DNA of 54,655 nt from an uncultured bacterium (GCA_964448115.1 CAYUVA010000032.1:1-54655); one strand, 5' to 3'; counted from the stretch's first letter, positions 1 through 54,655 are shown. Notes: generated from the letters alone by a model not told the origin. Made by a program: numbers and translations.

Positions 1-34
1 AGGCGATTTCTAACAGCATCACAATGCGAATTAA

Positions 35-53
35 ATCAATTCTTCAGAGCTGG
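35..53. repeat. 19-bp repeat ATCAATTCTTCAGAGCTGG, perfect inverted copy at 54606-54624
   Basis: Direct comparison of the two window ends; flanking sequences diverge. Confidence 0.85.
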
Positions 54-32707: not shown

Positions 32708-35700
32708 ATGGATATGCTAACAAGGGATAACAGCATAGCAGGTTGTATTTATACTTTTTATATGCCGATTCAAATGGCACTTTTATTCATCATCTGTTCG
32801 CAGTGCTGGTGCTGGGTGGCGGATGACGGGTATGGCAACGAGAGTTTGAATGCAGGTTACATCTGCAAATCGCAATTTGTTCCCGGCGAGATCCTGATCA
32901 AGCTAAAGCCTGGCAGGTACATGCTAAGCGACGAGGATAGGCTCTATATCGATGGATGCGATGTTAGCGAGATCATCTGGCACGATGAGATAAAGCTTAT
33001 CAAGCCAATCGCCCCGAGACAGTTGGCTGATAAAGTCCCCCCATTAAGGGATGTTCTCAAGATGGTCGCTCCAAAGCTCAGCAAAGCCCAACTGCTCGAG
33101 TGCTGTGATATTTTATCTTCAAACCCTGGCGTAAAGTACGCTGCTCCAAACAAGATCTATTACTTCGACTTCACTCCCGATGATCCGTTGTTCAAGGAGC
33201 AATATTCGCTCAGGAACACCGGGCAAGGTGGTGGCATCACCGGCGCCGATATCGATGCGCTTCGAGCCTGGGATCTACAGCAAGGGGCTGGGGATGTCAT
33301 CGTCGGAGTGATCGACACCGGTATAGATCTCGATCATCCCGACCTTTGGCAGAAGATCTGGGTGAACCGCTTCGAGGTAGCCTTCAACGGCATAGATGAT
33401 GACAACAATGGCTTCATAGATGACATTGTGGGCTGGGACTTTGCCAACGAGGATCCTTACCCGGTAGATGACTTCGGTCATGGAACCCATGTAGCAGGCA
33501 TCATCGGTGCGGTGGGGAATAATGGCGAGGGCATTGCTGGGGTCGATTTCAACTGTCGGCTCATGGCGGTCAAGATCGGCAGTATCTACGGTCTTCACGA
33601 GGACGATGCCGCGTTGGGACTAGCCTATGCAGCCGCGATGGGGGCTAAAATCCTCAACAATAGCTGGGGGGGCTACATCCCATCAGAGCTTATCAACCAG
33701 GTCATCCAGTATGTTGAGCATCTTGGATGCCTGGTGGTAGCGGCGGCGGGCAATGATGACACCGACTGGCCTCACTATCCCGGTTACCTGGAGCAGGTGC
33801 TCTGTGTTGCATCGGTAGATAGCCGCCAGCAACGTTCAATCTGGCGCCTGCCGTTCGCATCGAGCTACGGAGACTGGGTCGATATCAACGCATTCGGCAG
33901 CGAGATAATAAGCTGCTTTCCAGATAATGGCTATGCAAAAAAGAGCGGCACCTCGATGGCTACGCCGATGGTTAGCGGCGTGGCGGCATTGACGCTCGCC
34001 TCCTATCCGAACCTCCCCGCCCGGCAGCTCAAGGCAAGGTTGATCGCCACCGCGGACAATATCGATACTTATGACCCCGACTTTGCCAATAAGCTAGGAG
34101 CAGGCAGGGTGAATGCTTATCGGGCGATCAGCGAAAGACCTCATCCAATGCTCATCATAGGCCAGGTTGACTGCCATGACCATAAGGGCAACCAGGACGG
34201 GAGGCTGGAGCCTTCGGAGAAGGCAGCCATCAGGCTGTCGCTTCAGAATGTCTGGGTGGATTCGCCAGCCTGCACGGCAACCATTCATACCGATAATCGC
34301 TTCGTCAAGGTAACCAAAAGGGGAGTAAACCTTGCCCCGCTATCCCAAGATAATCTGGTCGAAATGCAGGATTTCTTCGAGATCGAACTAAGCGCTATAT
34401 GCCCGATAGATCAAAGGGTACAGTTCGATGTTAACTTCAGCTACCAGGGCGATTATCCGATGACAAGGGATCACTTTTTCTTGACCCTTTTCAGCCCGAT
34501 TATGCCTGAGAGGGGGTTCCCGTTCACGATAGCTGAAAATATCACAACCGATCCTTGTTTTGCCGATCTTGACGGAGACGAGGAGCTGGAGATCATCTTT
34601 GGAACCGGCCAGGGGAGGCTCTATGCGTTGGATCATCATGGCGAGCCGGTGCACGGCTTTCCCATAAAGCCGTGCAATGGGATTCTAGCCAATCCGGCCG
34701 CCGCTGATATCGACAACGATAGCAATATCGAGATAGTTGTCTCCACGGTTAGTCAAGGTGTCATGGTTATCGACCATAAGGGCAACCTGCTCCCCAACTG
34801 GCCGGCTAGCAGCGGTGGACATGGTTCGCCATCAGCCCCTGCTCTGGCTGACATAGATGGCGATGGTTGCCTCGATATCATCGATACCGCCTGGGATGGG
34901 GTGATCAATGCCTGGGATCACAAGGCAAGACCGCTGCCAGGCTTTCCAATCCGACTGGAGAATTCAGGGGGCATGAACACCTCGCCAGGGGTGGGGGACC
35001 TGGATGGAGATGGCTTAATGGATATCATCGTTCCCACCAAGTCAGGCAGCCTGCATGTCATCGATGCTTATGGCAGGCAACTCAACGGATTTCCGCTTGA
35101 TCTCGGTATCGGTTTGACTTCCGCTCCAGCGGCGGGTGATATGGATAAAGACGGTGACCTTGAGATAGTCCTCGGCGGTCAGGACGGCAAGCTTTACATA
35201 ATAAATCACGATGGCTCATTTATGCATCCCTACCCGGTGGAGACTCTTGGTTCCTTTACATCATCGCCAGCGCTGGGAGACCTCGATGCCGATGGGATGC
35301 TCGATGTGGTCATCGGCTCCGAGGATGGATTCCTGTATGCCTTCAACTGGCGGGGAGAAGCGCTGGACGGCTTCCCGGTCAACTTCAAGCAGGGCATAGT
35401 ATCATCGCCGCTTATTGCAGATGTCAACGGAAATGGCTTCCTGGAGGTGATTATTACCATTGGCAATCATCTTTTCATCCTGGATTGCACCGGCAAATCG
35501 ATTGCCGGCAGCCCATTGAATCTTCACCAGCCATCTACTGCAACGCCGGCGATTGCCGATATGGATGGCGATGGGAGGCTGGAGATCGGGATAACGGTCA
35601 ACAACCGCAAGTTATCCCTGTTCGACCTGTTCAGCCTGCCAAGAGCCAAGCAGGTGCCCTGGGGCGCGTATCATAAGGATAACCTGCGCTGCGGATTCAT

Positions 35701-36439
35701 CGATGATGGGCGCAGTCAGAGACCAAAGATCCTAATGGGAGGTGCGCTAGTCGAATCGACCGATCAGAAAAAAGGAGAGGTAAAGGTCCGCCTTATCGCA
35801 CTGGTCAGGGATGCGGATAACGATGTCAATGTTGTAAAGGTTTACTTCAAGGGAGAGCTGATCGCCGAGATGAACAAAGAAAAGGCTATCCCCGACCAGC
35901 ACAACCATGACCTATGGTTCAGCGAACAGGTAACCTTGGATGATGAATCGATACTCACTTATCATCCAGAGATGATCGCCCGCGATGAAAAGGGAAACCG
36001 CAGCCATTGCTACCCATATCTAACCATCACTCCCTGGGATAAGCCGGATAGTTACAATGATGATACAGCTTCAAGCTGGGAGGCTAATTATCTAAACACC
36101 CAGGCAGGCACCATCTTAGCGCCAAGGATTATCATCGCCGGCTTTTGGGATGCAGGATTTACCACCCTAAGCAGCGGATACCTTCGTATATATGCCCTGG
36201 TGCTATTTGGCGATGAAGTTACCGGTGGTGAGGTCGAGCTATTCTGCCTCGGCTTGCCGACTGGCATAAAGCTCGAAAGGATAGCCTCCCTCCCCATTGA
36301 GGGCGCGGAACTGCAATTTTACGAGTACAAGGCATACATAACCCCCCAGATGGTTGCCAAGGGGAGCTATCAATTCATGCTCATCGCCTCTGATGAAAGC
36401 GGCTCAAGAAGCGCGCCCTGGCCTTACATTCAGCGATGA
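32708..36439 (+). CDS. Secreted S8 (subtilisin-like) serine peptidase with FG-GAP/VCBS repeats and two C-terminal domains
   Basis: Catalytic triad VIDTG, GHGTHVAG, SGTSMATP; repeated PA.(A/G)D.D.DG..(E/D)I units; start uncertain. Confidence 0.9.
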   Translation: MDMLTRDNSIAGCIYTFYMPIQMALLFIICSQCWCWVADDGYGNESLNAGYICKSQFVPGEILIKLKPGRYMLSDEDRLYIDGCDVSEIIWHDEIKLIKPIAPRQLADKVPPLRDVLKMVAPKLSKAQLLECCDILSSNPGVKYAAPNKIYYFDFTPDDPLFKEQYSLRNTGQGGGITGADIDALRAWDLQQGAGDVIVGVIDTGIDLDHPDLWQKIWVNRFEVAFNGIDDDNNGFIDDIVGWDFANEDPYPVDDFGHGTHVAGIIGAVGNNGEGIAGVDFNCRLMAVKIGSIYGLHEDDAALGLAYAAAMGAKILNNSWGGYIPSELINQVIQYVEHLGCLVVAAAGNDDTDWPHYPGYLEQVLCVASVDSRQQRSIWRLPFASSYGDWVDINAFGSEIISCFPDNGYAKKSGTSMATPMVSGVAALTLASYPNLPARQLKARLIATADNIDTYDPDFANKLGAGRVNAYRAISERPHPMLIIGQVDCHDHKGNQDGRLEPSEKAAIRLSLQNVWVDSPACTATIHTDNRFVKVTKRGVNLAPLSQDNLVEMQDFFEIELSAICPIDQRVQFDVNFSYQGDYPMTRDHFFLTLFSPIMPERGFPFTIAENITTDPCFADLDGDEELEIIFGTGQGRLYALDHHGEPVHGFPIKPCNGILANPAAADIDNDSNIEIVVSTVSQGVMVIDHKGNLLPNWPASSGGHGSPSAPALADIDGDGCLDIIDTAWDGVINAWDHKARPLPGFPIRLENSGGMNTSPGVGDLDGDGLMDIIVPTKSGSLHVIDAYGRQLNGFPLDLGIGLTSAPAAGDMDKDGDLEIVLGGQDGKLYIINHDGSFMHPYPVETLGSFTSSPALGDLDADGMLDVVIGSEDGFLYAFNWRGEALDGFPVNFKQGIVSSPLIADVNGNGFLEVIITIGNHLFILDCTGKSIAGSPLNLHQPSTATPAIADMDGDGRLEIGITVNNRKLSLFDLFSLPRAKQVPWGAYHKDNLRCGFIDDGRSQRPKILMGGALVESTDQKKGEVKVRLIALVRDADNDVNVVKVYFKGELIAEMNKEKAIPDQHNHDLWFSEQVTLDDESILTYHPEMIARDEKGNRSHCYPYLTITPWDKPDSYNDDTASSWEANYLNTQAGTILAPRIIIAGFWDAGFTTLSSGYLRIYALVLFGDEVTGGEVELFCLGLPTGIKLERIASLPIEGAELQFYEYKAYITPQMVAKGSYQFMLIASDESGSRSAPWPYIQR

Positions 36440-39588: not shown

Positions 39589-41931
39589 ATGCTAAAGACC
39601 ATAGACCGCTACATACTGAAGGAGATCATCCCCTTGTTCATTATCGGTGTGGTCATGTTCACCTTCTTCTTGCTGACCCAGTCGATAATCAAGTCTTTAG
39701 ATCTGTTCATAAACCGTGGCGTCGGCTTGGGGGCTATCTTGCATTTCCAATTATTGGCATTACCTTGGATACTTGTATTGACCATTCCGATGAGCGTCCT
39801 GCTGAGCATCCTTTTAGCCTTCAGCAGGTTCAGCTCCGACAGCGAGATCATCGCCTTCAAGGCTAACGGGATAAGCCTGCTAAGACTCTACAAGCCGGTG
39901 CTTGCCTTTGGTTTGGCAACCTGGCTGATCACCCTATTCATCTTTATGTATTTGCTACCTAGCAGCAACCATAGTTTACGCAAGTTTAGGGTCGCACTGG
40001 TTCGCAGCCGAGCAAATGTTGGCATCAAGCCTTATGTCTTCAACCAGGAATTTCAGGACATTGTTCTATATGTCGATGGCATGAGCCATGATAGCATCAC
40101 GCTCAAGAATATCTTTCTTTACGATGAGCGGGATGCTCAAAATCCAAAGGTCATAGTAGCACGGGAGGCTGAGAAGTTCTTCAACACCGAGACCAACAAG
40201 GTAACCATGCGACTTAGAGACGGCGCCATTCACCTTATCCCCGCCGATAGCGAAAATAAGTACATCATTGATCGCTTCCAGCTCAATGAGATAAACCTCA
40301 CCGATGCAATACTTAGGGATATCGATGTGCCCAAGGGGGACAGGGACAAGACGGTAGGAGAGCTGCTTCAAACCATAAAGGAACGCGCCGCCAAGGGATT
40401 CAACACGAATCCGCAGTGGGTGGAGCTGCACAAGAAGTTCTCCATACCCTTTGCCTGCCTCGTCTTTACCTTGGTAGGGCTTCCCTTGGGGATTACTAGC
40501 CGGCGCGGAGGCAAAAGCAGCGGATTTGCTCTAAGCATGTTGCTTTACTCCGTGTATTACTTTTTCCTGACCGGTGGTGAGGGAGTCGGGGATTCGGGCA
40601 AGATACCGCCAGCGATCGCTATCTGGTCGCCGAATATTTTTCTTGGCTTGATCGGGCTGTATATCTTCGTAAAGATTGCCAAAGAAAAACCATTCAAATG
40701 GGTTAACTATATTATTTATCGCATAACATCGGTTGGAGCTAAAATTAAAATATTGATAAATAAAACATATAGTAGCTTTCATGCCAACGAGCGACATAGG
40801 GAGCATGATCACCTTGCGATAAGCTCCCGCAAGGCTGGCTTCTTTCCCAACATAATAGATCGTTATGTAAGCAGAGAGTTTCTGAAGCTATTTGCTGCCA
40901 CCTTGTTTATTTATTTTATACTGGCAATGATTATCCACTTCTCTGAGAAGGTCGATGATTTCCAGGAACACGGCGCATCGATCCTTGATGCCATCAAGTA
41001 TCTTGTTTACAAGGTGCTATATTTCACTTCCTTTGCTATCCATTATTCAGTGCTGTTAGCCAGTCTTTTGGCCCTAGGCTCTTTTAATAAGAACAACGAG
41101 CTGACTGCAATCAAGACCAGCGGCGTCAGCTTATACAGAACCGTGTTACCAATAATCATGCTTGCCGGATTGATCGGCGGTCTTTATTTTGCCTTCAACG
41201 AGAAGATCATCCCCATAACCCAGGAACGAGCATCTTACATCCTGGATACCAAGATCAAGGGTAAGCCTCCGCGCAGCTTCTTCGCCCAGAATAGACGATG
41301 GTTCAAGGGAAAAGGAAACAAGATCTTTTACTATCTTTCATTCAATCCGACCAAGAAGATGATGAGCGGATTCTCATTCTTTGAGTTCTATCCTGATATG
41401 ACGATCAAGAAACGCGTTGAAGCGAATAATCTTATCTGGGAGCAAGATAATTGGTACTTCCTGGATGGAAGAGAGATAAAGTTCGACAAAAACGGAGCAA
41501 TAATCGAGGATTCAACATTTGATAAAAAGCCCTGCCATATCGAGGAAACCCCAAGAGACTTCAACCAGGAGAGAAAGGAGTCCGAGGAGATGAATTATCG
41601 CGAGTTGAAGGAATATATCCAAGTCCTTACCGAGAGCGGATACGATGCGACTCCCTTCGTTGTTGATCTGCACCAGAAGATCTCCTTTTGCTTCCTCAGC
41701 CTTATCCTAGCCATCACCGCAGTACCATTTGCCACTCGACACAACCGGCTGAGCAATCCACTGGTGGGAGTCGGGATAAGCTTAGGCATCGCTATCGTCT
41801 ATTTCATCATCTACCGATTGCTGATAGAGTACGGCCATGGCGGATTGATCTCACCGACAATCGCAGCCTGGGGGGCAAATGTATTGTTCTTGGCAATCGG
41901 CTTGGTGCTTTTCTTCAAAACGCCTACCTAG
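39589..41931 (+). CDS. lptFG: Fused LPS export ABC transporter permease LptF-LptG
   Basis: Two tandem YjgP/YjgQ units (IDRYI...DSEIIAFKANGIS and IIDRYV...NNELTAIKTSGVS). Confidence 0.88.
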   Translation: MLKTIDRYILKEIIPLFIIGVVMFTFFLLTQSIIKSLDLFINRGVGLGAILHFQLLALPWILVLTIPMSVLLSILLAFSRFSSDSEIIAFKANGISLLRLYKPVLAFGLATWLITLFIFMYLLPSSNHSLRKFRVALVRSRANVGIKPYVFNQEFQDIVLYVDGMSHDSITLKNIFLYDERDAQNPKVIVAREAEKFFNTETNKVTMRLRDGAIHLIPADSENKYIIDRFQLNEINLTDAILRDIDVPKGDRDKTVGELLQTIKERAAKGFNTNPQWVELHKKFSIPFACLVFTLVGLPLGITSRRGGKSSGFALSMLLYSVYYFFLTGGEGVGDSGKIPPAIAIWSPNIFLGLIGLYIFVKIAKEKPFKWVNYIIYRITSVGAKIKILINKTYSSFHANERHREHDHLAISSRKAGFFPNIIDRYVSREFLKLFAATLFIYFILAMIIHFSEKVDDFQEHGASILDAIKYLVYKVLYFTSFAIHYSVLLASLLALGSFNKNNELTAIKTSGVSLYRTVLPIIMLAGLIGGLYFAFNEKIIPITQERASYILDTKIKGKPPRSFFAQNRRWFKGKGNKIFYYLSFNPTKKMMSGFSFFEFYPDMTIKKRVEANNLIWEQDNWYFLDGREIKFDKNGAIIEDSTFDKKPCHIEETPRDFNQERKESEEMNYRELKEYIQVLTESGYDATPFVVDLHQKISFCFLSLILAITAVPFATRHNRLSNPLVGVGISLGIAIVYFIIYRLLIEYGHGGLISPTIAAWGANVLFLAIGLVLFFKTPT

Positions 41932-45309: not shown

Positions 45310-47406
45310 TCAGTACAGGATTACCCTTCCGAGTTGGTAGATTATGGTAGTCAACACGAAGCCGATGAAAGTAAGCCCACCCCACTGCAATATAGCCCAC
45401 CTGAATCCGCCAGACTCATAGCGTGTAATTGCAAATGTTGCCATGCAGGGAGTGGCAATGAGGGCAAATATCAAAATGCAAAAGCCAACCAACGGATTAT
45501 AAGTATTACGAAGCGTCTCACGAAGCCCTTTGCCAGATCTTTCATCGGTTTCGCCTAACGAAAAGACGATACCAAACTGTGCCACGAAGACCTCCTTGGC
45601 AGCAAATGAGCCCAAAAAAGCAGTGCCCAAGCGCCAATCAAATCCCATCAATGATATGATCGGCTCTATCGCTTTTCCTATGCGCCCGGCAAAGGAATAG
45701 GTCAACGATTCGGTAGCCCTGGCTTTTTCCAACTCGGTTTCACTGAGATAATTGGCAGCACTATCAACCTCGAACTCTGTTTTCTGCGGATAGGAGCTTA
45801 GGAACCATAATATGATGCTTATTCCAAGAATGATAGTACCCGCCTTTTTCAGGTACATCCAGGCGCGCTGCCAGGCGTGATGAAACAATCCCTGCCAGGT
45901 GGGAAACCTATATGGCGGAAGCTCCATTACGAACGGTGCATCATCGCCGACTAACACGGTTTTTCGCAGTATTTTTATGATAACTACCGCGGCTGCAATC
46001 CCTACTAGGTATATTAAGTACATCATCGGCGCATGGAGTTTTGGCGGGAAAAAGGCTGGAATGATAAGCAGGTAGATGGGCAGCCTCGCTCCGCAACTGA
46101 CCAGCGGCAGCGCTAGCATCACCGCCAGACGATCACGGCGATTCTCCAGGGAGCGAGTTGCCATTATTGCTGGCACCGTACAGCCGAACCCGATGAGCAT
46201 TGGAATGAAACTCTTACCATGCAGTCCTATCTTGTGCATGAATTTGTCCATGATAAAGGCAGCGCGTGCCATATAGCCTGTATCTTCAAGGATGGAGATA
46301 CCTAAAAATAACAGCATGATATTGGGGAGAAAGACCAGAACCCCACCTACTCCACCGATAATACCGTCAACGATAAGCGAATGAAGCCAAGAAAGCTCGC
46401 TAAAGCGCCAGCCTAGGCTTATCGCACCAGCGAGCCAGGCGAAGAAGTCCTCGATCCATCCCATGGGGATATTGCCGATGGTAAAGACGATCCAAAACAA
46501 AAGATACATGGCGCCAAAGAAAATAGGAAATGCTGCGAAGCGATTGAGAAGTACTTTATCTATCCGCTCTGTAAGGTTTACTCTATCGCTCTTGGGAATC
46601 CTCTTGGTGCATTCGCGGATCAAACCATTGGCGAAGCCGAACCTAGCATCGGCGATGAGCAACGCAGGATCAACATTATGAATTCGTCTTATGTATTGCT
46701 CCCTTTTTTGCACCTCATCAAGCAATATTTCGCCTTTATCGGTTCTCTTGGCTAAATTGATAAACTCCTCGTCTCCCTCCAGTATCTTTGTCGCTATATA
46801 TCGTGCGTTGTAGTTGCTGGTCATCTTATCGGGTACAAGTTTGCTCAATACGGAGATCGCCTCTTCGATCTCGGCAGGGAAAAAGTAACATCTGGGGCGG
46901 CTTCGATTCTCCACGGCGTGAAGAATCGCCTCTTTGAGCTTGGGGATGCCGATTCCTCTATGTCCGATGGTGGTTACTGCCTGAGCCTGGCAACGAGCAG
47001 AGATGCATTCAGTGTCCAGGGTTTCGCCACGCTGCTCAAGCTCATCTATCATATTGAAGACCAGCACCAGATTCGCCCCCAGAGCCATGAGTTGGCAGGT
47101 GAGATAAAGGTTACGCTCCATGTTAGAGGAATCGATTATATCGAGCACAACATCAGGTTTTTCCTCGACTATATATCGGCGGGCAATCCTTTCCTCCTCA
47201 GAGTAGGCAGTGAGGCTGTAAGTGCCGGGGAGATCCACCATCTTTAAGCGATATTCTCCCCATTTCACCATGGAGCTTTTGATCTCCACGGTAACCCCTG
47301 GATAATTGCCTACATGCTGGGTTGCGCCTGCTAAAGCATTGAAGATGCAGGTTTTGCCAGCGTTCGGATTACCAGCTACTGCAACATGGATGATTTTATC
47401 TTTCAT
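45310..47406 (-). CDS. feoB: Ferrous iron transport protein B
   Basis: GNPNAGKT, VGNYPGVTVE, DLPGTYSL, GFGCTVPA, SCGARLP, MELPPYR. Confidence 0.96.
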   Translation of the reverse strand: MKDKIIHVAVAGNPNAGKTCIFNALAGATQHVGNYPGVTVEIKSSMVKWGEYRLKMVDLPGTYSLTAYSEEERIARRYIVEEKPDVVLDIIDSSNMERNLYLTCQLMALGANLVLVFNMIDELEQRGETLDTECISARCQAQAVTTIGHRGIGIPKLKEAILHAVENRSRPRCYFFPAEIEEAISVLSKLVPDKMTSNYNARYIATKILEGDEEFINLAKRTDKGEILLDEVQKREQYIRRIHNVDPALLIADARFGFANGLIRECTKRIPKSDRVNLTERIDKVLLNRFAAFPIFFGAMYLLFWIVFTIGNIPMGWIEDFFAWLAGAISLGWRFSELSWLHSLIVDGIIGGVGGVLVFLPNIMLLFLGISILEDTGYMARAAFIMDKFMHKIGLHGKSFIPMLIGFGCTVPAIMATRSLENRRDRLAVMLALPLVSCGARLPIYLLIIPAFFPPKLHAPMMYLIYLVGIAAAVVIIKILRKTVLVGDDAPFVMELPPYRFPTWQGLFHHAWQRAWMYLKKAGTIILGISIILWFLSSYPQKTEFEVDSAANYLSETELEKARATESLTYSFAGRIGKAIEPIISLMGFDWRLGTAFLGSFAAKEVFVAQFGIVFSLGETDERSGKGLRETLRNTYNPLVGFCILIFALIATPCMATFAITRYESGGFRWAILQWGGLTFIGFVLTTIIYQLGRVILY

Positions 47407-47464: not shown

Positions 47465-48232
47465 TCATTTTATCCCGATAGCCTCTGCCTCTTCTTTGCG
47501 CAGCGTCAAGTAATATCCCTTGACCTTTACCTTTATCGGATCTCCAAAGGGAGCTGTTTGATCCATCTTAATTATAACATCGGGCAATATGCCCATATCG
47601 ATAAGTCTTTGGCGTATGGATCCTTTTGCATGAATGGCGAATACTCTTCCCTCTTCACCGGGCTTTAAGTCAAGCAGTGTTCTTTTATATTGTCTCCCCA
47701 GCTTCCTTCTCCACCGATGCCTTCCATCTCGCAGAGTACAGGGGTCTTCTTCAATGCAGACATGGTTGAAGGAGACATCCTCGTGGCTATGCGCAGCCTG
47801 GAACCATTTTGTAAACCTATTGAGCAGAGTAAGCTCGCCCCTGGGGCAAGACCTAATGAACTCAGTGAAACTAACCATGCGATCAAGGGTCTCAAGGCTC
47901 AAGTGGTGTTCTATAGCACAGGCATCCTCCTCGGCTATTTCACCGGGAACTAGAAGTATATCAGTCAAGAAGCGGGTGAGAAACTCATGCCTCAGCACCA
48001 TCCTTCTTGCCTGCTGTTCACCCTCAGCAGTAAACTCGATATATTCTCTAGCCTTGTAGTTGATAAGCCCTTCCTCGGCAAGCCGTTTCATAGCACCGTT
48101 CACGCTTGCCATACTTACGCCCTTCTCTTTGGCTATATCCTTGACTCGGGCGACCTTCTTTTCAGCTATTAGCCTGAAGATGATCTCCAGATAATCCCAG
48201 AGGCTTTCGGTTATCGAACTTGAGGCTTCCAT
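47465..48232 (-). CDS. DtxR/MntR-family metal-dependent repressor with C-terminal FeoA domain
   Basis: DYLE.I, ARVKDIA, RHE.L..FL, ACAIEHH; C-terminal RLIDMGI.P...APFGDP; SD AAGGAG before ATG at 48232. Confidence 0.88.
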   Translation of the reverse strand: MEASSSITESLWDYLEIIFRLIAEKKVARVKDIAKEKGVSMASVNGAMKRLAEEGLINYKAREYIEFTAEGEQQARRMVLRHEFLTRFLTDILLVPGEIAEEDACAIEHHLSLETLDRMVSFTEFIRSCPRGELTLLNRFTKWFQAAHSHEDVSFNHVCIEEDPCTLRDGRHRWRRKLGRQYKRTLLDLKPGEEGRVFAIHAKGSIRQRLIDMGILPDVIIKMDQTAPFGDPIKVKVKGYYLTLRKEEAEAIGIK

Positions 48233-48245
48233 GTTTCTCTCCTTG

Positions 48246-48286
48246 TTAGGCGAGACTAATTTAGTACGCATAATCTATTTTGTCAA
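48246..48286 (-). promoter_or_regulatory. Sigma-70 promoter (TTGACA-17-TAAATT) overlapped by a TTAG-N6-CTAA palindrome, candidate DtxR-family operator
   Basis: -35 at 48286-48281 and -10 at 48263-48258 on the minus strand; palindrome TTAGGCGAGACTAA at 48246-48259. Confidence 0.55.
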
Positions 48287-49934: not shown

Positions 49935-49967
49935 GTAGGGGCAATTCAATTCTTTGAATTGCCCCTA
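49935..49967. repeat. GTAG-type REP-like palindrome / bidirectional hairpin between convergent genes
   Basis: 14-bp perfect stem TAGGGGCAATTCAA / TTGAATTGCCCCTA with a 4-nt loop, starting with GTAG. Confidence 0.6.
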
Positions 49968-50013
49968 TTTATTGTCAACCCTCTAACAAGGAGTACTATT
50001 TGGGTTGGTTTTC

Positions 50014-51408
50014 CTACATGCTTTCAAGCTCAAAGGGATCGGTCGTGTAGGGTGTGATCCTCTCCATTACAATGCGCAGGTTGGTCTCTCCCATGCGCTT
50101 GATAACAGCGATGATCCTGCCATCCCGCTTCTCGAAGCTAGCCGGATAGTTGATATCCACTATGGTATAGCCTGCGGGGATGGCGACCTCGATGCGGCTG
50201 AATGTAGTCGTGCGCTCGAAGACCAGTTGATTAAGCTCGTTCAGATAATATGAGCCTTCGTGATAGTAGATCATATCCAGCCAATAACGATCAAGCTCAC
50301 GGCGAAAATCTGGCTGATCGCTGCGCACCATTACCGTAGGATATTCGTTGTTTGAGAACTCCGCTGTAAGCTCCAACTCCTCCATGGTGTCAAAGGCATC
50401 GAATGCCCGAACCTTGGTATCTGGAGTGGAGGCTCTGACTGCGAAATTGGACACCGGCCACATGGTGGTTACATAGAACAGCCCCAGCTCATCGGATAGA
50501 TCATAATGAACCAGCGGCATCTGCTCCACTAGATCCTGCTCCACCTTAGACATCACTGCACGCAGATGATCCAGGTTTGCCTTACTGTTAAACTCTACCC
50601 CGATATCGTGAGCCATCTCATCCAGATAACCGGGGATAGGTGCAGCAGAGGCTAGCGCAACTGATTCTGCTGATAAGCGAAGATCGCCCTCTTCAAGAGC
50701 CTTGAAGCCGATCTTATCGACCACCATGTCTCCCTCGCCGATGCCGATTCCACGGCAGTCCTGTTGATTATCGCTGAAGATATTGCTGTCCATGTAAGGC
50801 TCAGCTCCTGCGCCAGCCATGACCCCAAACCTGTTGCCGCTAAAGATATTATTCACTATCGATGGACCGGTTGGCCACCAAGTCCAGACGCCGGTCTCAT
50901 TGTTCATAAGATTATTGTGAGCGATCAAGGGCATGGAGCTATTGCAGGCGATTGCACCCAGTCCGCCGTTATTCTTGAAGATATTGTTCAGAATAACCGC
51001 GCCGGATCCGCTGACATGAACACCGATGTGACGGTTATCCTCGATAATGTTGTTGAAGACGCCAGTCAAGGAGTGCCTGGTGTCAACACCGATAACACCG
51101 TTTCTTATTGTAAAGCCGATAATCATAGCGTTATTGGCGCCGGTAACAACCGTTCCCTCGCCGTTACCATCTAGTATGGTCGCTCCAGCACCCTCACCCA
51201 TCAAGATAACGCCCTCAGCGAGCTTGATGTGCTCATGATAGATGCCGGCTGGCACGCGCACAATCTCCCCAGGATAGGCGGCATCGATCGCCTTTTGAAT
51301 GGAGAATACCTCTTGAGTGATAGCCTGCTGCCCCGCGCCAGCCAGGCAGAAAAGGCTCATTAACACTGCAATGGTTAAAGTCGAGATGGTTGTTGATCTC
51401 ATTGTCAT
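50014..51408 (-). CDS. Secreted right-handed parallel beta-helix protein (NosD/pectate lyase-like) with unknown C-terminal domain
   Basis: Signal peptide, SIQKAIDAA.PG..V.V.AG.Y.E, repeated NN.I..N motifs; SD GAGGAGG. Confidence 0.75.
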   Translation of the reverse strand: MTMRSTTISTLTIAVLMSLFCLAGAGQQAITQEVFSIQKAIDAAYPGEIVRVPAGIYHEHIKLAEGVILMGEGAGATILDGNGEGTVVTGANNAMIIGFTIRNGVIGVDTRHSLTGVFNNIIEDNRHIGVHVSGSGAVILNNIFKNNGGLGAIACNSSMPLIAHNNLMNNETGVWTWWPTGPSIVNNIFSGNRFGVMAGAGAEPYMDSNIFSDNQQDCRGIGIGEGDMVVDKIGFKALEEGDLRLSAESVALASAAPIPGYLDEMAHDIGVEFNSKANLDHLRAVMSKVEQDLVEQMPLVHYDLSDELGLFYVTTMWPVSNFAVRASTPDTKVRAFDAFDTMEELELTAEFSNNEYPTVMVRSDQPDFRRELDRYWLDMIYYHEGSYYLNELNQLVFERTTTFSRIEVAIPAGYTIVDINYPASFEKRDGRIIAVIKRMGETNLRIVMERITPYTTDPFELESM

Positions 51409-51451: not shown

Positions 51452-51480
51452 AATATAAGACCTAATCGATCTTATGTCAA
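51452..51480 (-). promoter_or_regulatory. Sigma-70 promoter TTGACA-17-TATATT for the beta-helix gene
   Basis: Perfect -35, 17-nt spacer and near-consensus -10 in the 77-bp gap after the E1 gene. Confidence 0.5.
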
Positions 51481-51485
51481 GTCCT

Positions 51486-52658
51486 TCATGTTAAAATACT
51501 CATCTCCTCGATATCTCCGCTTAGCTCGAAGTGATAGAATCTCTTGTCAGCGATCCTGGCTGTGTAGATATCCAATAGCGGTAAACCGACATCGCCCAGG
51601 CTTGTTTCCAACCCACCTTCGCTACCATCCAGATTATTGATCAGCACTATGTCCTTAACCTTGCCGCAGCTTGAGCAGGTTATCGATAGATCATCGAAAT
51701 GCTTCATAGAACGCATGGGAAGCTCGGTTGTACCGCAATTCGGGCAGTTAAGCTCATAGACGATCTCATGGTTAAGCTCCAAGATCGCCTTTCTACCCAG
51801 CTTTTTCTTCCCGATGCGAACAAGATCGCCAAGAGTCAGGTCTTTTGATTTTAGTGGTAACTCATCGATTTCATCCCAGGATTCATGGCTGAGGCAGTCC
51901 GGCTTGATGCTGTAATCAACCAGGTAGCTTTGGAAGTTCAGACCATTGATGAAGTAGCCACTTCCATTAAGTGCATGTAAACCCTTGGGATCATGGATTA
52001 TCTTTATTGCCTCTTGTACTTGCAGACCGCCAACTATTGAGCTTATGGTCGGAGTAGTCGGTACTGCTGTATCAGGGAGCCTTTGTTTTAACAACTGGCA
52101 GGATCTGCGCTCTTTGATCGCCTCGTAGTCCTCGTCGGTAAGTGTGCACTCATAGCATGGATACCTAGGTGGTATGAAACCTCTAACTACGCCCTCGAAG
52201 ATGCTGATCCCTCCATCCACCCAAGGCGTTTGCACCTTGTAACAGCACCTATTGATAAACAGCCTCGCCTCTCGATTATCAAGCGCACCGATAACCACAT
52301 CCATGCGTCTTATGACTCCAAGACCGATCTCGTACAGCACATTGCCATCAATGGCTTGGATGCTGATATCATTATTAAGCTCGGTAGCTCTTTGCGCAGC
52401 GACATGCGCCTTTGACTTGCCGACATCTTGTTCTCTAAACAGCACTGAGCGGGTAAGGTTGGTAGCCTCAACCTTGTCGAAGTCTATCACCAGGATTCTT
52501 CCTGCGCCCAGCAAAGCCAGATTCTTGAGTATCTCGTTGCCCAGCGCTCCGGCTCCCACGACCAGAAACCGTGCATTGATTATTTTATCCTGATTCCACC
52601 AGGAAATTATGCGAAGGCGGGAGTACTTATCTGCTAAAATCCTCTTAGGAGAACTCAT
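51486..52658 (-). CDS. E1-like ubiquitin/Ubl-activating enzyme (ThiF/MoeB/E1 superfamily) with extended C-terminus
   Basis: YSR arginine finger, VVGAGALG, D.D.VE.TNL.R, LDNREAR, CYEC followed by RRSC (candidate catalytic Cys), additional CPNC/CSSC. Confidence 0.88.
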   Translation of the reverse strand: MSSPKRILADKYSRLRIISWWNQDKIINARFLVVGAGALGNEILKNLALLGAGRILVIDFDKVEATNLTRSVLFREQDVGKSKAHVAAQRATELNNDISIQAIDGNVLYEIGLGVIRRMDVVIGALDNREARLFINRCCYKVQTPWVDGGISIFEGVVRGFIPPRYPCYECTLTDEDYEAIKERRSCQLLKQRLPDTAVPTTPTISSIVGGLQVQEAIKIIHDPKGLHALNGSGYFINGLNFQSYLVDYSIKPDCLSHESWDEIDELPLKSKDLTLGDLVRIGKKKLGRKAILELNHEIVYELNCPNCGTTELPMRSMKHFDDLSITCSSCGKVKDIVLINNLDGSEGGLETSLGDVGLPLLDIYTARIADKRFYHFELSGDIEEMSILT

Positions 52659-53188
52659 ATATACTTCTTGCGGTAGCTATCCTTTTTCTTCCAGAAGATA
52701 TGATATATGTACCATCTCTTTTCAGTGATATCTCTTTTGTCAAGTGGGAACATCTTCTTGTTATGCTTTGCCCAGTTTGCCGCCTCTATGTTAGCAGGAC
52801 TTTCCAGGTTATAGTTCTTATATTGCAATACCTCCCCTAAGCGAAGGATATAGTTAGCCATATCCTCCGAGGCTCTGAAGGCTGAGCTGAAGGCGCAGAA
52901 CTTGCTGCTGTTGGGATAGATGTTCGGGTGATAATGAGGGCTTAGGATCGTGCAGGTAGGTCCAACATCGAAATAATTATATCCTAAGTGGATAACACAG
53001 ATAACCTTCTTTACCTCGATGAAGTTGCCGTCCTTAAGCCCTATACCGTTGACCTTGTAGATTACAAGGTACTCATCCGGGGGATCTTTCTTGTTTGGAT
53101 ATACCTTTATCCAACGGGTCTTGCGAAAGGTCTTCTTTATCTGTTGATATTCGGCTCTCAGCCTTCTTAATAAGATTGCCGATGTCAT
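52655..53188 (-). CDS. E2-like ubiquitin-conjugating (UBC fold) protein
   Basis: RRL..E first helix, YHPNIY followed by Cys (HPNIYPNSSKFC), NLESPANIEAA. Confidence 0.82.
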   Translation of the reverse strand: MTSAILLRRLRAEYQQIKKTFRKTRWIKVYPNKKDPPDEYLVIYKVNGIGLKDGNFIEVKKVICVIHLGYNYFDVGPTCTILSPHYHPNIYPNSSKFCAFSSAFRASEDMANYILRLGEVLQYKNYNLESPANIEAANWAKHNKKMFPLDKRDITEKRWYIYHIFWKKKDSYRKKYI

Positions 53189-53190
53189 TG

Positions 53191-54552
53191 TTACTTATTC
53201 TGCGTATATAAGCGTTCCTTTGGCGGAAGGTAAATCTCACTTCCAATCCTTATTTTATTTGGATCCTCCAGACCGTTGTACTCAGCAACTAGTTTTGTGA
53301 ACTCCCAGGTCGAATTGCCATAATAATTCAGGCAGATCTCGGTGAGTGTATCCCCCGGCGCGATTATTATCACCATCTCGTCTCCCTTTGGATAAAATCG
53401 AGTGGCTTCGGGGATAGCAGTAGGAGTAGGCTGGAGTTCCTCTTCTTTTTTTTTAGTCTCGTCAAGAAGTGTTTGGATCATAACCTGCTGGATATTAATC
53501 AGTTTTTGTATCTCCTTCAAGTCATTTATTCCAGGCATTTGTTTCAGGCGCTCCAGGTAAAGCTGTTGTGCTTGGGTAGTAGTTTCCTTTACCTGGCGTA
53601 CTGCCTGATCCACCTCTGTGTTCCTCTTATTCTGTTGCTGTATGTTATAGCGCTGGATCATTAACAAAGCGATTAGATTGATCAGCAGGAATACGAAAAT
53701 TATCAAAGCTACCTTGATGCTATTCTTGAGCAGCTTTTTACCTTTTATATGATAATACTGTTTCTCCTCTTGGAGCAACATCTGCTTGAAGAACTGCTTG
53801 AACTCACGATCCAGGGTGCTGGTGATAGTTGTAATAATCTCATTTCGCACCTCAGCCCTGGTTTCGTATTCAGCGATAAGCTCGTAATTCTTGTTCTCCT
53901 CGATGAACTTGGAGGTATCCAGTCCATAAAGGCTGCTCTTGCGCAGTCCGCAAATATAGACTTGAGTAACCGACTTAACATTGCCATTTCTCTGGTTAAA
54001 TACGCCTACCTCGTTGCGGACAGGATCGACCACGATTGCGACCTGCCATTCCCTGGGAAAGAAATTGCTCTGGATGAATTGATCCGCCTTGGATAGAAAA
54101 ACTCCGAAGTTTGGATGCGAGTGATACCAGCCGAGGATCTGTAGCTCTGGATAGGTCGTATCCCTCTTGTGGTGGATGTGTTCAAGGGCATCGGTAGTGA
54201 ACTTGAAGCTGGCTACACCCTCCTCGCCTTTGCGGGCTGGGATAGTCTTCATTACCTCGATGAACCGCTTACCGCTCTCTTCGTCCTTGCGCAAGAAGCC
54301 TAGAAGAATGCCGCCGACCTCCTGACTCCTGTGCAGCTTTGTATGGTCGTAGATCTCTGAGTAAGCGGTGGTGCTTAGAAAGACCTTGAAATCCTCAGAG
54401 TCAACCCCCACACCTGGAACACCTAGTGGTGCAGCCCATAGGTGGTCGTTCTCAACTGGTTCGAGCTGAACGGTAGCCTCGGTCTCCAGGCTCTTGATCA
54501 GCTTGAAGGTGCACGCTGGAGCCTCTTGTTTTTCATCTTCCATTTCTTCCAT
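53191..54552 (-). CDS. JAB/MPN+ metallo-isopeptidase fused to a TM helix, coiled coil and LysM domain
   Basis: EVGGILLG and GWYHSHPNFGVFLSKAD (HxHx7Sx2D); TM at about aa 281-299; Q/E/K-rich coil; PGDTL..I...YYG...N.L.DPN.I..G..I.LP. Confidence 0.88.
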   Translation of the reverse strand: MEEMEDEKQEAPACTFKLIKSLETEATVQLEPVENDHLWAAPLGVPGVGVDSEDFKVFLSTTAYSEIYDHTKLHRSQEVGGILLGFLRKDEESGKRFIEVMKTIPARKGEEGVASFKFTTDALEHIHHKRDTTYPELQILGWYHSHPNFGVFLSKADQFIQSNFFPREWQVAIVVDPVRNEVGVFNQRNGNVKSVTQVYICGLRKSSLYGLDTSKFIEENKNYELIAEYETRAEVRNEIITTITSTLDREFKQFFKQMLLQEEKQYYHIKGKKLLKNSIKVALIIFVFLLINLIALLMIQRYNIQQQNKRNTEVDQAVRQVKETTTQAQQLYLERLKQMPGINDLKEIQKLINIQQVMIQTLLDETKKKEEELQPTPTAIPEATRFYPKGDEMVIIIAPGDTLTEICLNYYGNSTWEFTKLVAEYNGLEDPNKIRIGSEIYLPPKERLYTQNK

Positions 54553-54605
54553 CGTATGATATTATATAGGAAAACAAATCAAATTGCCATAGTTAATCAA
54601 GAGTT

Positions 54606-54624
54606 CCAGCTCTGAAGAATTGAT
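54606..54624. repeat. 19-bp repeat CCAGCTCTGAAGAATTGAT, inverted copy of 35-53
   Basis: Direct comparison of the two window ends. Confidence 0.85.
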
Positions 54625-54655
54625 CTGAATTGAAATAGCGAATCCATAGGATGAT

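Follow-up and report, generated by a model that had tools for sequence, protein, structure and literature searches.

Enzyme core of a probable ubiquitin-type conjugation system, split over two loci, with a predicted membrane-anchored JAB peptidase in an uncultured bacterium

Three adjacent minus-strand genes at one end of a 54,655-nucleotide contig from an uncultured bacterium (GCA_964448115.1, CAYUVA010000032.1:1-54655; analysed whole and called the window here) encode an Rpn11-like peptidase of the JAB/JAMM type with one predicted transmembrane (TM) helix, a UBC-type E2 and a ThiF-type E1. We consider this trio the likely enzyme core of a complete system for conjugating and deconjugating a ubiquitin-like protein (Ubl), split over two loci, with the Ubl encoded on another contig of the same genome. 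By its predicted parts the trio is a member of the prokaryotic E1-E2-(RING)-JAB-YukD-Ubl class, which had already been predicted computationally. That is, the part list itself is known, and what appears to be new here is the split over two loci, the lack of a recognisable RING, the LysM-tailed JAB protein and the lone position of the genome in its phylum.

The window is the entire contig C32 of genome G000 (86 contigs, 3.98 Mb, 94% complete), for which there are three sequencing runs, all DNA and all from one sample of one study. Among the 199,900 species genomes in the collection, G000 is the sole genome of its phylum, and the 60 genomes sampled for comparison are all related to it at domain level only. 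A preliminary description of the window had reported three minus-strand genes with a 2-nucleotide (nt) gap and an ATGA overlap, forming a eukaryote-like E1, E2 and JAB set with intact catalytic residues. Both statements held. An open reading frame (ORF) listing and a check of the sequence found the genes where they had been placed (Table 1), with the gap between the JAB and E2 genes at 53189-53190 and the 4-nt ATGA overlap between the E2 and E1 genes at 52655-52658. The closest solved relatives were Rad6/UbcH10 for the E2, UBA7/Uba1 for the E1 and Rpn11 for the JAB protein.

We analysed the E2 by profile searches, alignment and structure prediction. The Pfam family UQ_con matched the 177-amino-acid (aa) protein at E 7.1e-06, and 44 of the 46 sequences of the E2 family likewise. 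An alignment of the E2 with its five close relatives (A1), used as a profile against 1.84 billion representatives, retrieved 1183 proteins at E<=1e-3 and 484 at E<=1e-10. In the 46-sequence alignment Y40, H87, P88, N89, C98, G118 and W139 were invariant. The AlphaFold2 model computed from these 46 sequences reached a pLDDT of 88.3 and a pTM of 0.81, and superseded a first model from 6 sequences (pLDDT 71, active-site loop below 50). When the model was compared with the PDB by Foldseek, 323 matches were obtained at E<=1e-3; the best 50 of the 323 were all eukaryotic E2s, among them Ubc2/Rad6, UbcH10, UbcH5, Ubc13 and Ube2K (E ~1e-06, TM-score 0.55-0.71; 0.64-0.71 for Ubc2/Rad6, UbcH10 and Ubc13). 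In a profile search of PDB sequences the HPN of the E2 fell on that of UBC1 from Arabidopsis (2aak), and Cys98 came to lie one residue off the catalytic Cys of UBC1 because the loop of the E2 is one residue longer. The point on which the preliminary description had staked its assignment, a UBC fold in this protein with its Cys at the active site, was thereby borne out.

G000 holds a single E2. Its close relatives in a word-based search were only five (P0002-P0006, 53-62% identity, on contigs of 1.3-3.3 kb), and 3 of the 60 unrelated genomes carried the family. Neither the E2 nor alignment A1 as query found related loci in the genome contig collection. As a separate observation, the C-terminus of the E2 forms an aromatic/basic helix (aa 160-175; tail aa 158-177, window 52655-52717) that is similar in the five close relatives; the E2s of the metagenome loci described below end instead in long Lys-rich polybasic tails. 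We speculate that such basic tails could bind membranes or polyanions.

The E1 was matched by Pfam ThiF at E 3.2e-55, with the adenylation domain at aa 17-243. The nucleotide-binding motif and the candidate Cys after CxxC that had been proposed for it were confirmed: G35xG37xxG40 is followed by C168xxC171 and then by Cys187, which stands in an RRSC motif of the crossover loop (52098-52100). Cys187, the CxxC and a VPTTPT stretch were invariant in all five aligned operon E1s. Among solved proteins, UBA7 (1.9e-30) and Uba1 (~1e-28) ranked ahead of ThiF (2.2e-23) and MoeB (3.3e-17). Beyond the adenylation domain lies a C-terminal domain of ~135 aa with a zinc ribbon (C305xxC and C328xxC; weak Pfam zinc-ribbon matches at aa 300-336), which is kept in 15 related loci.

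The third protein combines an Rpn11-like JAB/JAMM peptidase domain (aa 56-162; Pfam JAB 9.8e-13, Prok-JAB 6.9e-07) with one TM helix, a coiled-coil linker and a C-terminal LysM-like domain. Among solved proteins it comes closest to PSMD14/Rpn11 (3.5e-09), then to the Rpn11-like protein of Caldiarchaeum (6fjv, 2.5e-06), and it is the only JAB copy in G000. As claimed beforehand, its E...HxHx7Sx2D signature is intact (E78, H144, H146, S154, D157); the catalytic Glu78 lies at EVGG upstream of the JAMM motif, which was invariant across a six-sequence JAB alignment. The predicted TM helix is flanked by five Lys on its N-terminal side and by three Arg/Lys on its C-terminal side. The residues matched by LysM were also matched by the NCBIfam models YneA (1.3e-05) and LysM PRK11198 (0.0039). 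We infer that the JAB domain is cytoplasmic, since E1 chemistry requires ATP, and that the LysM-like tail is periplasmic. A gene for LptF/LptG in the window suggests an outer membrane with lipopolysaccharide (LPS), that is, a diderm cell, and hence a periplasm.

The preliminary description had singled out the JAB protein as envelope-anchored. A TM helix and a LysM-like tail are indeed present, but the anchoring is not distinctive: in 34 of 39 JAB homologues (query excluded) the JAMM motif precedes a hydrophobic helix, beyond which the tail measures 18-392 aa. Of the other five, P0168, P0176, P0189 and P0194 lack such a segment and P0190 has no JAMM match by regular expression. Only the LysM is unusual, as it was found in one of the 21 homologues (of 39) that were scanned with Pfam (P0162, 376 aa, 20.9 bits, after the TM helix). 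The same TM-anchored JAB architecture occurs in the operon of genome G049 and in four scanned metagenome loci, where the Prok-RINGs are also TM-anchored. By these predictions, JABs of this clade are as a rule anchored in the membrane and the LysM is a rare tail, one among many; tblastn with the tail of the G000 JAB protein gave no match in the related loci.

The preliminary description had noted that there is no adjacent Ubl. This holds only for the window, as the genome does encode one. A YukD search of G000 returned a single match over the cut-off, on contig C29 (39.9 bits; 40.5 in the protein scan versus a cut-off of 27), and the 88-aa product ends in Gly, so that no processing would be required. 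With the Ubl of the G049 operon it shares 47% identity over 89 aa (E 2e-25), with that of genome G058 41% and with that of genome G013 32%. A (T/V)AG end is common to the four Ubls, with a tail of 7 residues added in the G049 protein. The ubiquitin family itself (PF00240) gave nothing over its cut-off in G000, where the C29 Ubl scored 14.2 bits. On the grounds of homology and single copy number we pair the C29 Ubl with the C32 enzymes, as the presumed substrate of the E1. Its gene and the neighbouring gene for a 161-aa protein lie between a homocysteine S-methyltransferase gene and nadD/rsfS. With ordinary genes on either side, the pair cannot be just the stretch that C32 lacks upstream. That stretch is lost in an assembly break: C32 stops 103 bp 5' of the JAB gene start in a dispersed repeat, and on that side the absence of an adjacent Ubl applies only as far as this point.

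The 161-aa protein is a candidate for a further component. Its residues 42-90 contain eight Cys/His in the order CxxC-x14-CPx3C-x4-H-x7-CW-x5-C-x4-C, which by eye runs parallel to the RING pattern of the related operons (CxxC-x12/13-CPxC-x3/4-H-x2-CW-x4/5-C-x4-C), except that two of its loops are longer. By language model, the zinc-finger part resembled clusters of Prok-RING_1 and archaeal zf-RING_2 (0.82-0.87, below the 0.9 level), which we treat as leads only. Complex prediction for the E2 (A1) with residues 30-110 of the protein gave 0.31 versus a mark of 0.32, with controls at 0.00, and is evidence neither way. A relaxed Cys/His pattern picked out 1 of 24,427 ORFs (0 in 20 shuffles) and was rejected as evidence; it is circular because it had been written after inspecting this protein. 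On balance, we lean slightly towards a diverged RING-like E3.

The genes, their domains and folds, the conserved catalytic residues, the homology to operon parts and the single copies of E2, JAB and Ubl support the set of parts directly. That a thioester cascade operates, that the two loci belong together, how the JAB protein crosses the membrane, that it binds peptidoglycan and what is modified are part of the mechanism that we propose. The 88-aa YukD-type Ubl would be made from C29 with a free C-terminal Gly. The E1 would adenylate this Gly with ATP and take the Ubl onto Cys187, from where it would be transferred to Cys98 of the E2, with Asn89 of the HPN as the putative oxyanion-hole residue. 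The Ubl would then be ligated to lysines of targets, possibly aided by the 161-aa Cys/His-rich protein. The Rpn11-like JAB domain, at the cytoplasmic face of the inner membrane, would remove the Ubl, and binding of peptidoglycan by the periplasmic LysM would make deconjugation localised at, or responsive to, the envelope.

Several findings weigh against this proposal. Its steps are deduced here from sequence and models. The UQ_con score of the E2 (26.1 versus 27 bits) is slightly short of the curated Pfam cut-off, and that of the LysM (20.3 versus 20.9 bits) falls just short of it. The near relatives of the E2 were seen only on short contigs, and the JAB-TM-LysM linkage was surveyed in remoter homologues, none of which (39, query coverage <=46%) aligned beyond the JAB domain. 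For the topology of the JAB protein the basis is its hydropathy and a positive-inside bias that is weak. The Ubl gene and the enzyme genes lie on separate contigs and are paired without linkage. The candidate E3 failed the profile tests for a RING: Prok-RING_1 exceeded its cut-off nowhere in G000, the 161-aa protein had no Pfam match better than E 0.07 (sub-threshold PHD/SLX1 RING, E ~0.1), and a custom hidden Markov model (HMM) of six operon RINGs missed it among the 24,427 G000 ORFs, with a 47-aa ORF on contig C1 as its best match (E 0.031). The strict Cys/His pattern of the six relatives occurred in none of the G000 ORFs, and hhalign of the 161-aa protein against the RING alignment gave a probability of 2.8%. 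A word-based search for its homologues returned only the protein itself, and tblastn found none in the related loci. Given these failures, the system may have no E3, or one that is not recognised.

The preliminary description had suggested a distinct system, and this did not hold, since the same parts recur in operons of three other genomes and in 24 metagenome loci, and the class is already in print. The G049 operon encodes a YukD Ubl (96 aa), an E1, a DUF2007/DUF4190 TM protein, a JAB protein, an FHA multi-TM protein, a Prok-RING_1 protein and an E2. In G058 we found an E1, a TM-Prok-RING_1 protein, a YukD::E2 fusion, a YukD Ubl, a JAB protein, FHA and vWA, and in G013 an E1, a Ubl, an E2 and a JAB protein. 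From metagenomes, 24 loci were retrieved at 25-34% identity; ORFs were mapped in 15 of them, and Pfam was run on 28 proteins from 4 (L025, L043, L045 and L046), from which the domains are taken. The 15 loci share a CarboxypepD_reg TM protein, a JAB protein of 465-573 aa, an E1, a 3-TM double-zinc-ribbon (DZR) protein, a TM-anchored Prok-RING_1 protein of ~100 aa and an N-terminally extended E2. The extension of ~100 aa ends in ..QPG and has no Pfam match; it could be a fused Ubl. Two observations on these relatives stand apart. The JAB ectodomain in L025, L043, L045 and L046 measures ~340 aa (with a weak BACON_2 match in L025). Downstream of the G049 operon lies a gene for a 913-aa Amidase_2-TIR-KAP NTPase protein (L018 5684-8425, minus strand), which looks like a conflict-system effector and, by its Amidase_2 (peptidoglycan amidase) domain, like a further link to peptidoglycan.

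In 2011 Burroughs and co-workers reportedly proposed the conjugation of YukD-like Ubls and assigned a UFD to these E1s. Prokaryotic Ubl-conjugation systems with E1, E2, RING E3 and JAB were described by Burroughs, Iyer and Aravind (summarised in PMC3417536 and PMC7159879), and complete bacterial operons are also mentioned in PMC5654768. Like this class, G000 has a UBC-type E2 (HPN and Cys) and a YukD-like Ubl with a terminal Gly. Its E1 likewise combines a crossover-loop Cys with an additional C-terminal domain, its JAB is Rpn11-like, and it shows the membrane anchoring of components that is common in the related operons. It differs in that the class is one of single operons whereas the G000 system is split, with the enzymes on C32 and the Ubl and candidate E3 on C29. 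It also differs in having no Prok-RING_1 match, in the LysM tail of its JAB, in an E2 with an aromatic/basic tail and no fused Ubl, and in having no FHA, vWA or DZR partners. In the literature searched, experiments were found for Caldiarchaeum, Bil, CBASS and Bub only, and none on bacterial operons of this class.

We therefore set the trio beside these four systems. The operon of Caldiarchaeum subterraneum (PMC3082918, PMC5654768 and PMC6043591) encodes Ub, E1-like, E2-like, small RING and Rpn11-like proteins, and the proposed G000 set, with the 161-aa protein as a candidate E3, follows this five-part plan. The JAB protein matches 6fjv, and the E1 is, as there, a single-domain enzyme of ThiF size closest to eukaryotic E1s. 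However, the G000 Ubl is YukD-type and not bona fide ubiquitin, the JAB is membrane-anchored, the genes do not form one operon and the host is a bacterium. The archaeal cascade has been reconstituted in vitro (PMC5654768), and that of G000 is deduced from sequence. With Bil (BilABCD) the parts Ubl, E2, JAB and E1 are shared, together with a weak BilD match of the E1. In contrast, BilB carries a CEHH motif (PMC11354881) where the G000 E2 has HPN...Cys, and the G000 Ubl has one beta-grasp domain versus mostly two in Type I Bil Ubls (PMC11601603). The 390-aa G000 E1, with a single ThiF match, would also be too short for the tandem adenylation domains of BilD, the context is not one of defence, and the E2 matches no PADLOC model.

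CBASS Cap2/Cap3 shares a ThiF-type adenylation core and a JAB peptidase with G000. Unlike in Cap2, however, the E1 and E2 of G000 are separate proteins, the E2 being UBC-type and without a Cap2 match, and the window has neither a CD-NTase nor an effector. Bub operons likewise are bacterial and contain E1, E2, Ubl and peptidase, but they encode DUF6527 together with either a Ubl-E2 and a JAB-E1 fusion or one of E2 and E1 (PMC11601603), whereas the G000 proteins are separate. Bub also works through oxyester intermediates (PMC11601596), whereas Cys stands at both catalytic positions in G000. As far as these comparisons of sequence and gene content go, the trio is not Bil, CBASS Cap2/3 or Bub, and for Bil and CBASS this agrees with what had been proposed: the E2 has no PADLOC match and the E1 is matched in its adenylation core only.

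A role in conflict with phages or other invaders, in which the Ubl would tag or disable invader proteins or arm an effector and the JAB would act as reset or priming peptidase, is a reading that the relatives invite and that we consider unlikely for this locus. Mobile E1-E2-(E3)-JAB operons have been read as selfish or conflict systems by Aravind and co-workers (PMC3417536 and PMC7159879). The G049 operon abuts the Amidase_2-TIR-KAP NTPase gene, metagenome locus L025 adjoins a Type ISP restriction-modification gene, and the family is patchily distributed, being present in 3 of 60 unrelated genomes. The trio itself gives only weak PADLOC matches to Cap2, BilD and JAB models. The E1-E2 (Cap2-type) models match the E1 at residues 16-181 only (best 9.9e-16), BilD matches it in the shared adenylation core only (5.1e-09, 33.3 bits), the JAB protein is matched by generic JAB models, and the E2 by 0 families. 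Scans of 13 flanking proteins, moreover, upheld the housekeeping rather than defence context that had been claimed: Fpg, RsmI, a DUF362 Fe-S protein, a subtilase with FG-GAP repeats, a polysaccharide flippase, a capsule synthesis protein, LptF/LptG, UDP-glucose dehydrogenase, aldehyde dehydrogenase, FeoB, a DtxR-FeoA fusion, a TPR protein and an LPG-synthase TM protein. These speak of Feo iron uptake, LPS/capsule export, lipid modification and DNA repair, and the earlier statement that there is neither a CD-NTase nor an effector stood for the 13 proteins, among which no defence gene was found either. The Ubl locus, between its homocysteine methyltransferase gene and nadD/rsfS, is no different, and the GC profile has no island-like break (0.447 in the 52-54 kb bin, within the window range of 0.438-0.531). 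A defence role and the proposed cascade are not mutually exclusive.

The position of the trio at a broken contig end suggests another reading, namely that an operon was interrupted at the repeat and that a stranded remnant, no longer conjugating, is left, with the C29 Ubl unrelated or in another role. The contig does end at a multi-copy repeat ~50 bp upstream of the promoter-like site, a recognisable RING gene was not found in G000 with Prok-RING_1 or the custom HMM, and the Ubl lies inside the operon in all three other genomes examined. Decay, however, is hard to reconcile with three intact, translationally coupled ORFs that keep every family-invariant catalytic residue and the upstream promoter-like site, or with a Ubl that is 47% identical to an operon-encoded one and has its C-terminal Gly ready; we regard a remnant as quite improbable. 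Still further from the data is a pathway of the ThiS/MoaD-ThiF/MoeB type, in which the E1 would merely adenylate or thiocarboxylate a beta-grasp protein for sulfur transfer or cofactor synthesis. The adenylation fold, the CxxC zinc site and the crossover-loop Cys are shared with these enzymes, and the highest-ranking NCBIfam models for the E1 carry the names ThiF (1.1e-44) and MoeB (3.2e-34). Yet the scores are far under all the curated cut-offs (TIGR02356 for ThiF, 152.3 versus 275.25; NF006444 for MoeB, 118.2 versus 449), and the second of the two ThiF-type genes of G000, on contig C8, scores higher for ThiF (237.5 bits). The E1 is moreover coupled to an HPN+Cys E2 and an Rpn11-like JAB, which have no role in sulfur transfer, and protein family scans of the window found no thiamine or molybdopterin genes adjoining the trio. 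We hold this pathway to be very improbable, and retain the two-locus conjugation system as the likely reading.

Promoter-like sites lie upstream of the JAB gene and before the next gene, where the preliminary description had put them, but they are consensus matches only, and the region as a whole has 12 such sites versus 7.3 +/- 2.2 in shuffles. The TATAAT ends 8 nt from the JAB ATG, with no Shine-Dalgarno in between (window 54553-54566); a -10-like box so close may leave the transcript with little or no leader, or else translation may begin at a Met further downstream. No terminator-like site was found between the E1 gene and the next gene, which encodes a putative secreted or anchored right-handed beta-helix protein and has a terminator-like hairpin nearby at 49935-49968. 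As tblastn found no homologue of the beta-helix protein in the related loci, it has no support as a conserved partner.

The repeat at the contig end, which starts CAGCTCTGAAGAATTGAT, occurs in two sequence variants and is present at both ends of C32. It recurs where C15 ends and where C52 and C62 begin, and internally at C18:38136 and C46:20400. Probably it marks the end of a mobile element present in multiple copies, at which the assembly breaks. C52 was considered as the continuation of C32 and rejected, since the two contigs carry the repeat at their ends in one and the same orientation, which gives no basis for a join.

Three further genes of the window deserve mention. A 780-aa protein (39589-41931, plus strand) has two LptF_LptG matches (E 9.4e-164) and is an apparent LptF-LptG fusion. 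A DtxR-type iron repressor fused to a FeoA domain (47465-48271, minus strand) is encoded directly upstream of feoB (45310-47406). The subtilase (1243 aa; 32708-36439, plus strand) carries FG-GAP/beta-propeller repeats.

Table 1. Location of the trio, its signature sites, the second locus and neighbouring features (window coordinates unless a contig is named)
Feature	Location	Strand	Basis or remark
JAB-TM-LysM gene	53191-54552	-	ORF, 453 aa
JAMM zinc motif H144-S-H146-x7-S154-x2-D157	54082-54123	-	regular expression and translation
Predicted TM helix, aa 281-299	53656-53712	-	mean Kyte-Doolittle 3.23 over 19 aa
LysM-like domain, aa 396-443	53224-53367	-	LysM 5.3e-04, 20.3 bits (Pfam cut-off 20.9)
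E2 gene	52655-53188	-	ORF, 177 aa
E2 active-site stretch, HPN aa 87-89 (52922-52930) to Cys98 (52895-52897)	52895-52930	-	translation
E1 gene	51486-52658	-	ORF, 390 aa
YukD-type Ubl, 88 aa, ends ...EITAG	G000:C29, L021 1477-1743	-	YukD 40.5 bits
161-aa Cys/His-rich ORF	G000:C29, L021 1781-2266	-	37 nt upstream of Ubl gene; promoter-like site before it
Promoter-like ATGGCA-18-TATAAT	54561-54590	-	upstream of JAB gene; 10/12 consensus matches only
Promoter-like TTGACA-17-TATATT	51452-51480	-	before next (beta-helix) gene; 11/12 consensus matches only
Beta-helix neighbour (464 aa), predicted secreted or anchored	50014-51408	-	Beta_helix 7.9e-12, NosD 1.4e-08; N-terminal hydrophobic segment
Dispersed repeat onset	54607-54655 (window's final 49 bases; also window 1-53)	.	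shared 18-mer and continuation

Among bacterial systems, the nearest counterparts of eukaryotic ubiquitin conjugation are operons that combine a canonical UBC E2 and a Uba-like E1 with an Rpn11-like JAB and a YukD-type Ubl, and the G000 instance is a compact one, with five small genes, no fusions, a processing-free Ubl and a housekeeping context. Its LysM tail offers a handle on why most JABs of the clade are membrane proteins with variable ectodomains. A bolder reading, which we judge rather unlikely at present, is resident housekeeping Ubl signalling in a diderm cell, where the sole deubiquitinase would be a TM sensor whose LysM reads or tethers to the wall and gates the removal of the Ubl, in the cytoplasm, from proteins near the envelope; the aromatic/basic tail of the E2 would then help to hold the cascade at the membrane. 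If this were true, a bacterial ubiquitin-type pathway would have a physiological role in envelope homeostasis, and the variable ectodomains that most JABs of the clade carry would be the mark of a whole group of 'sensor deubiquitinases' working outside-in. Should the cascade operate as we propose, it would provide a tractable model for ubiquitin-type tagging and its use in a bacterium.

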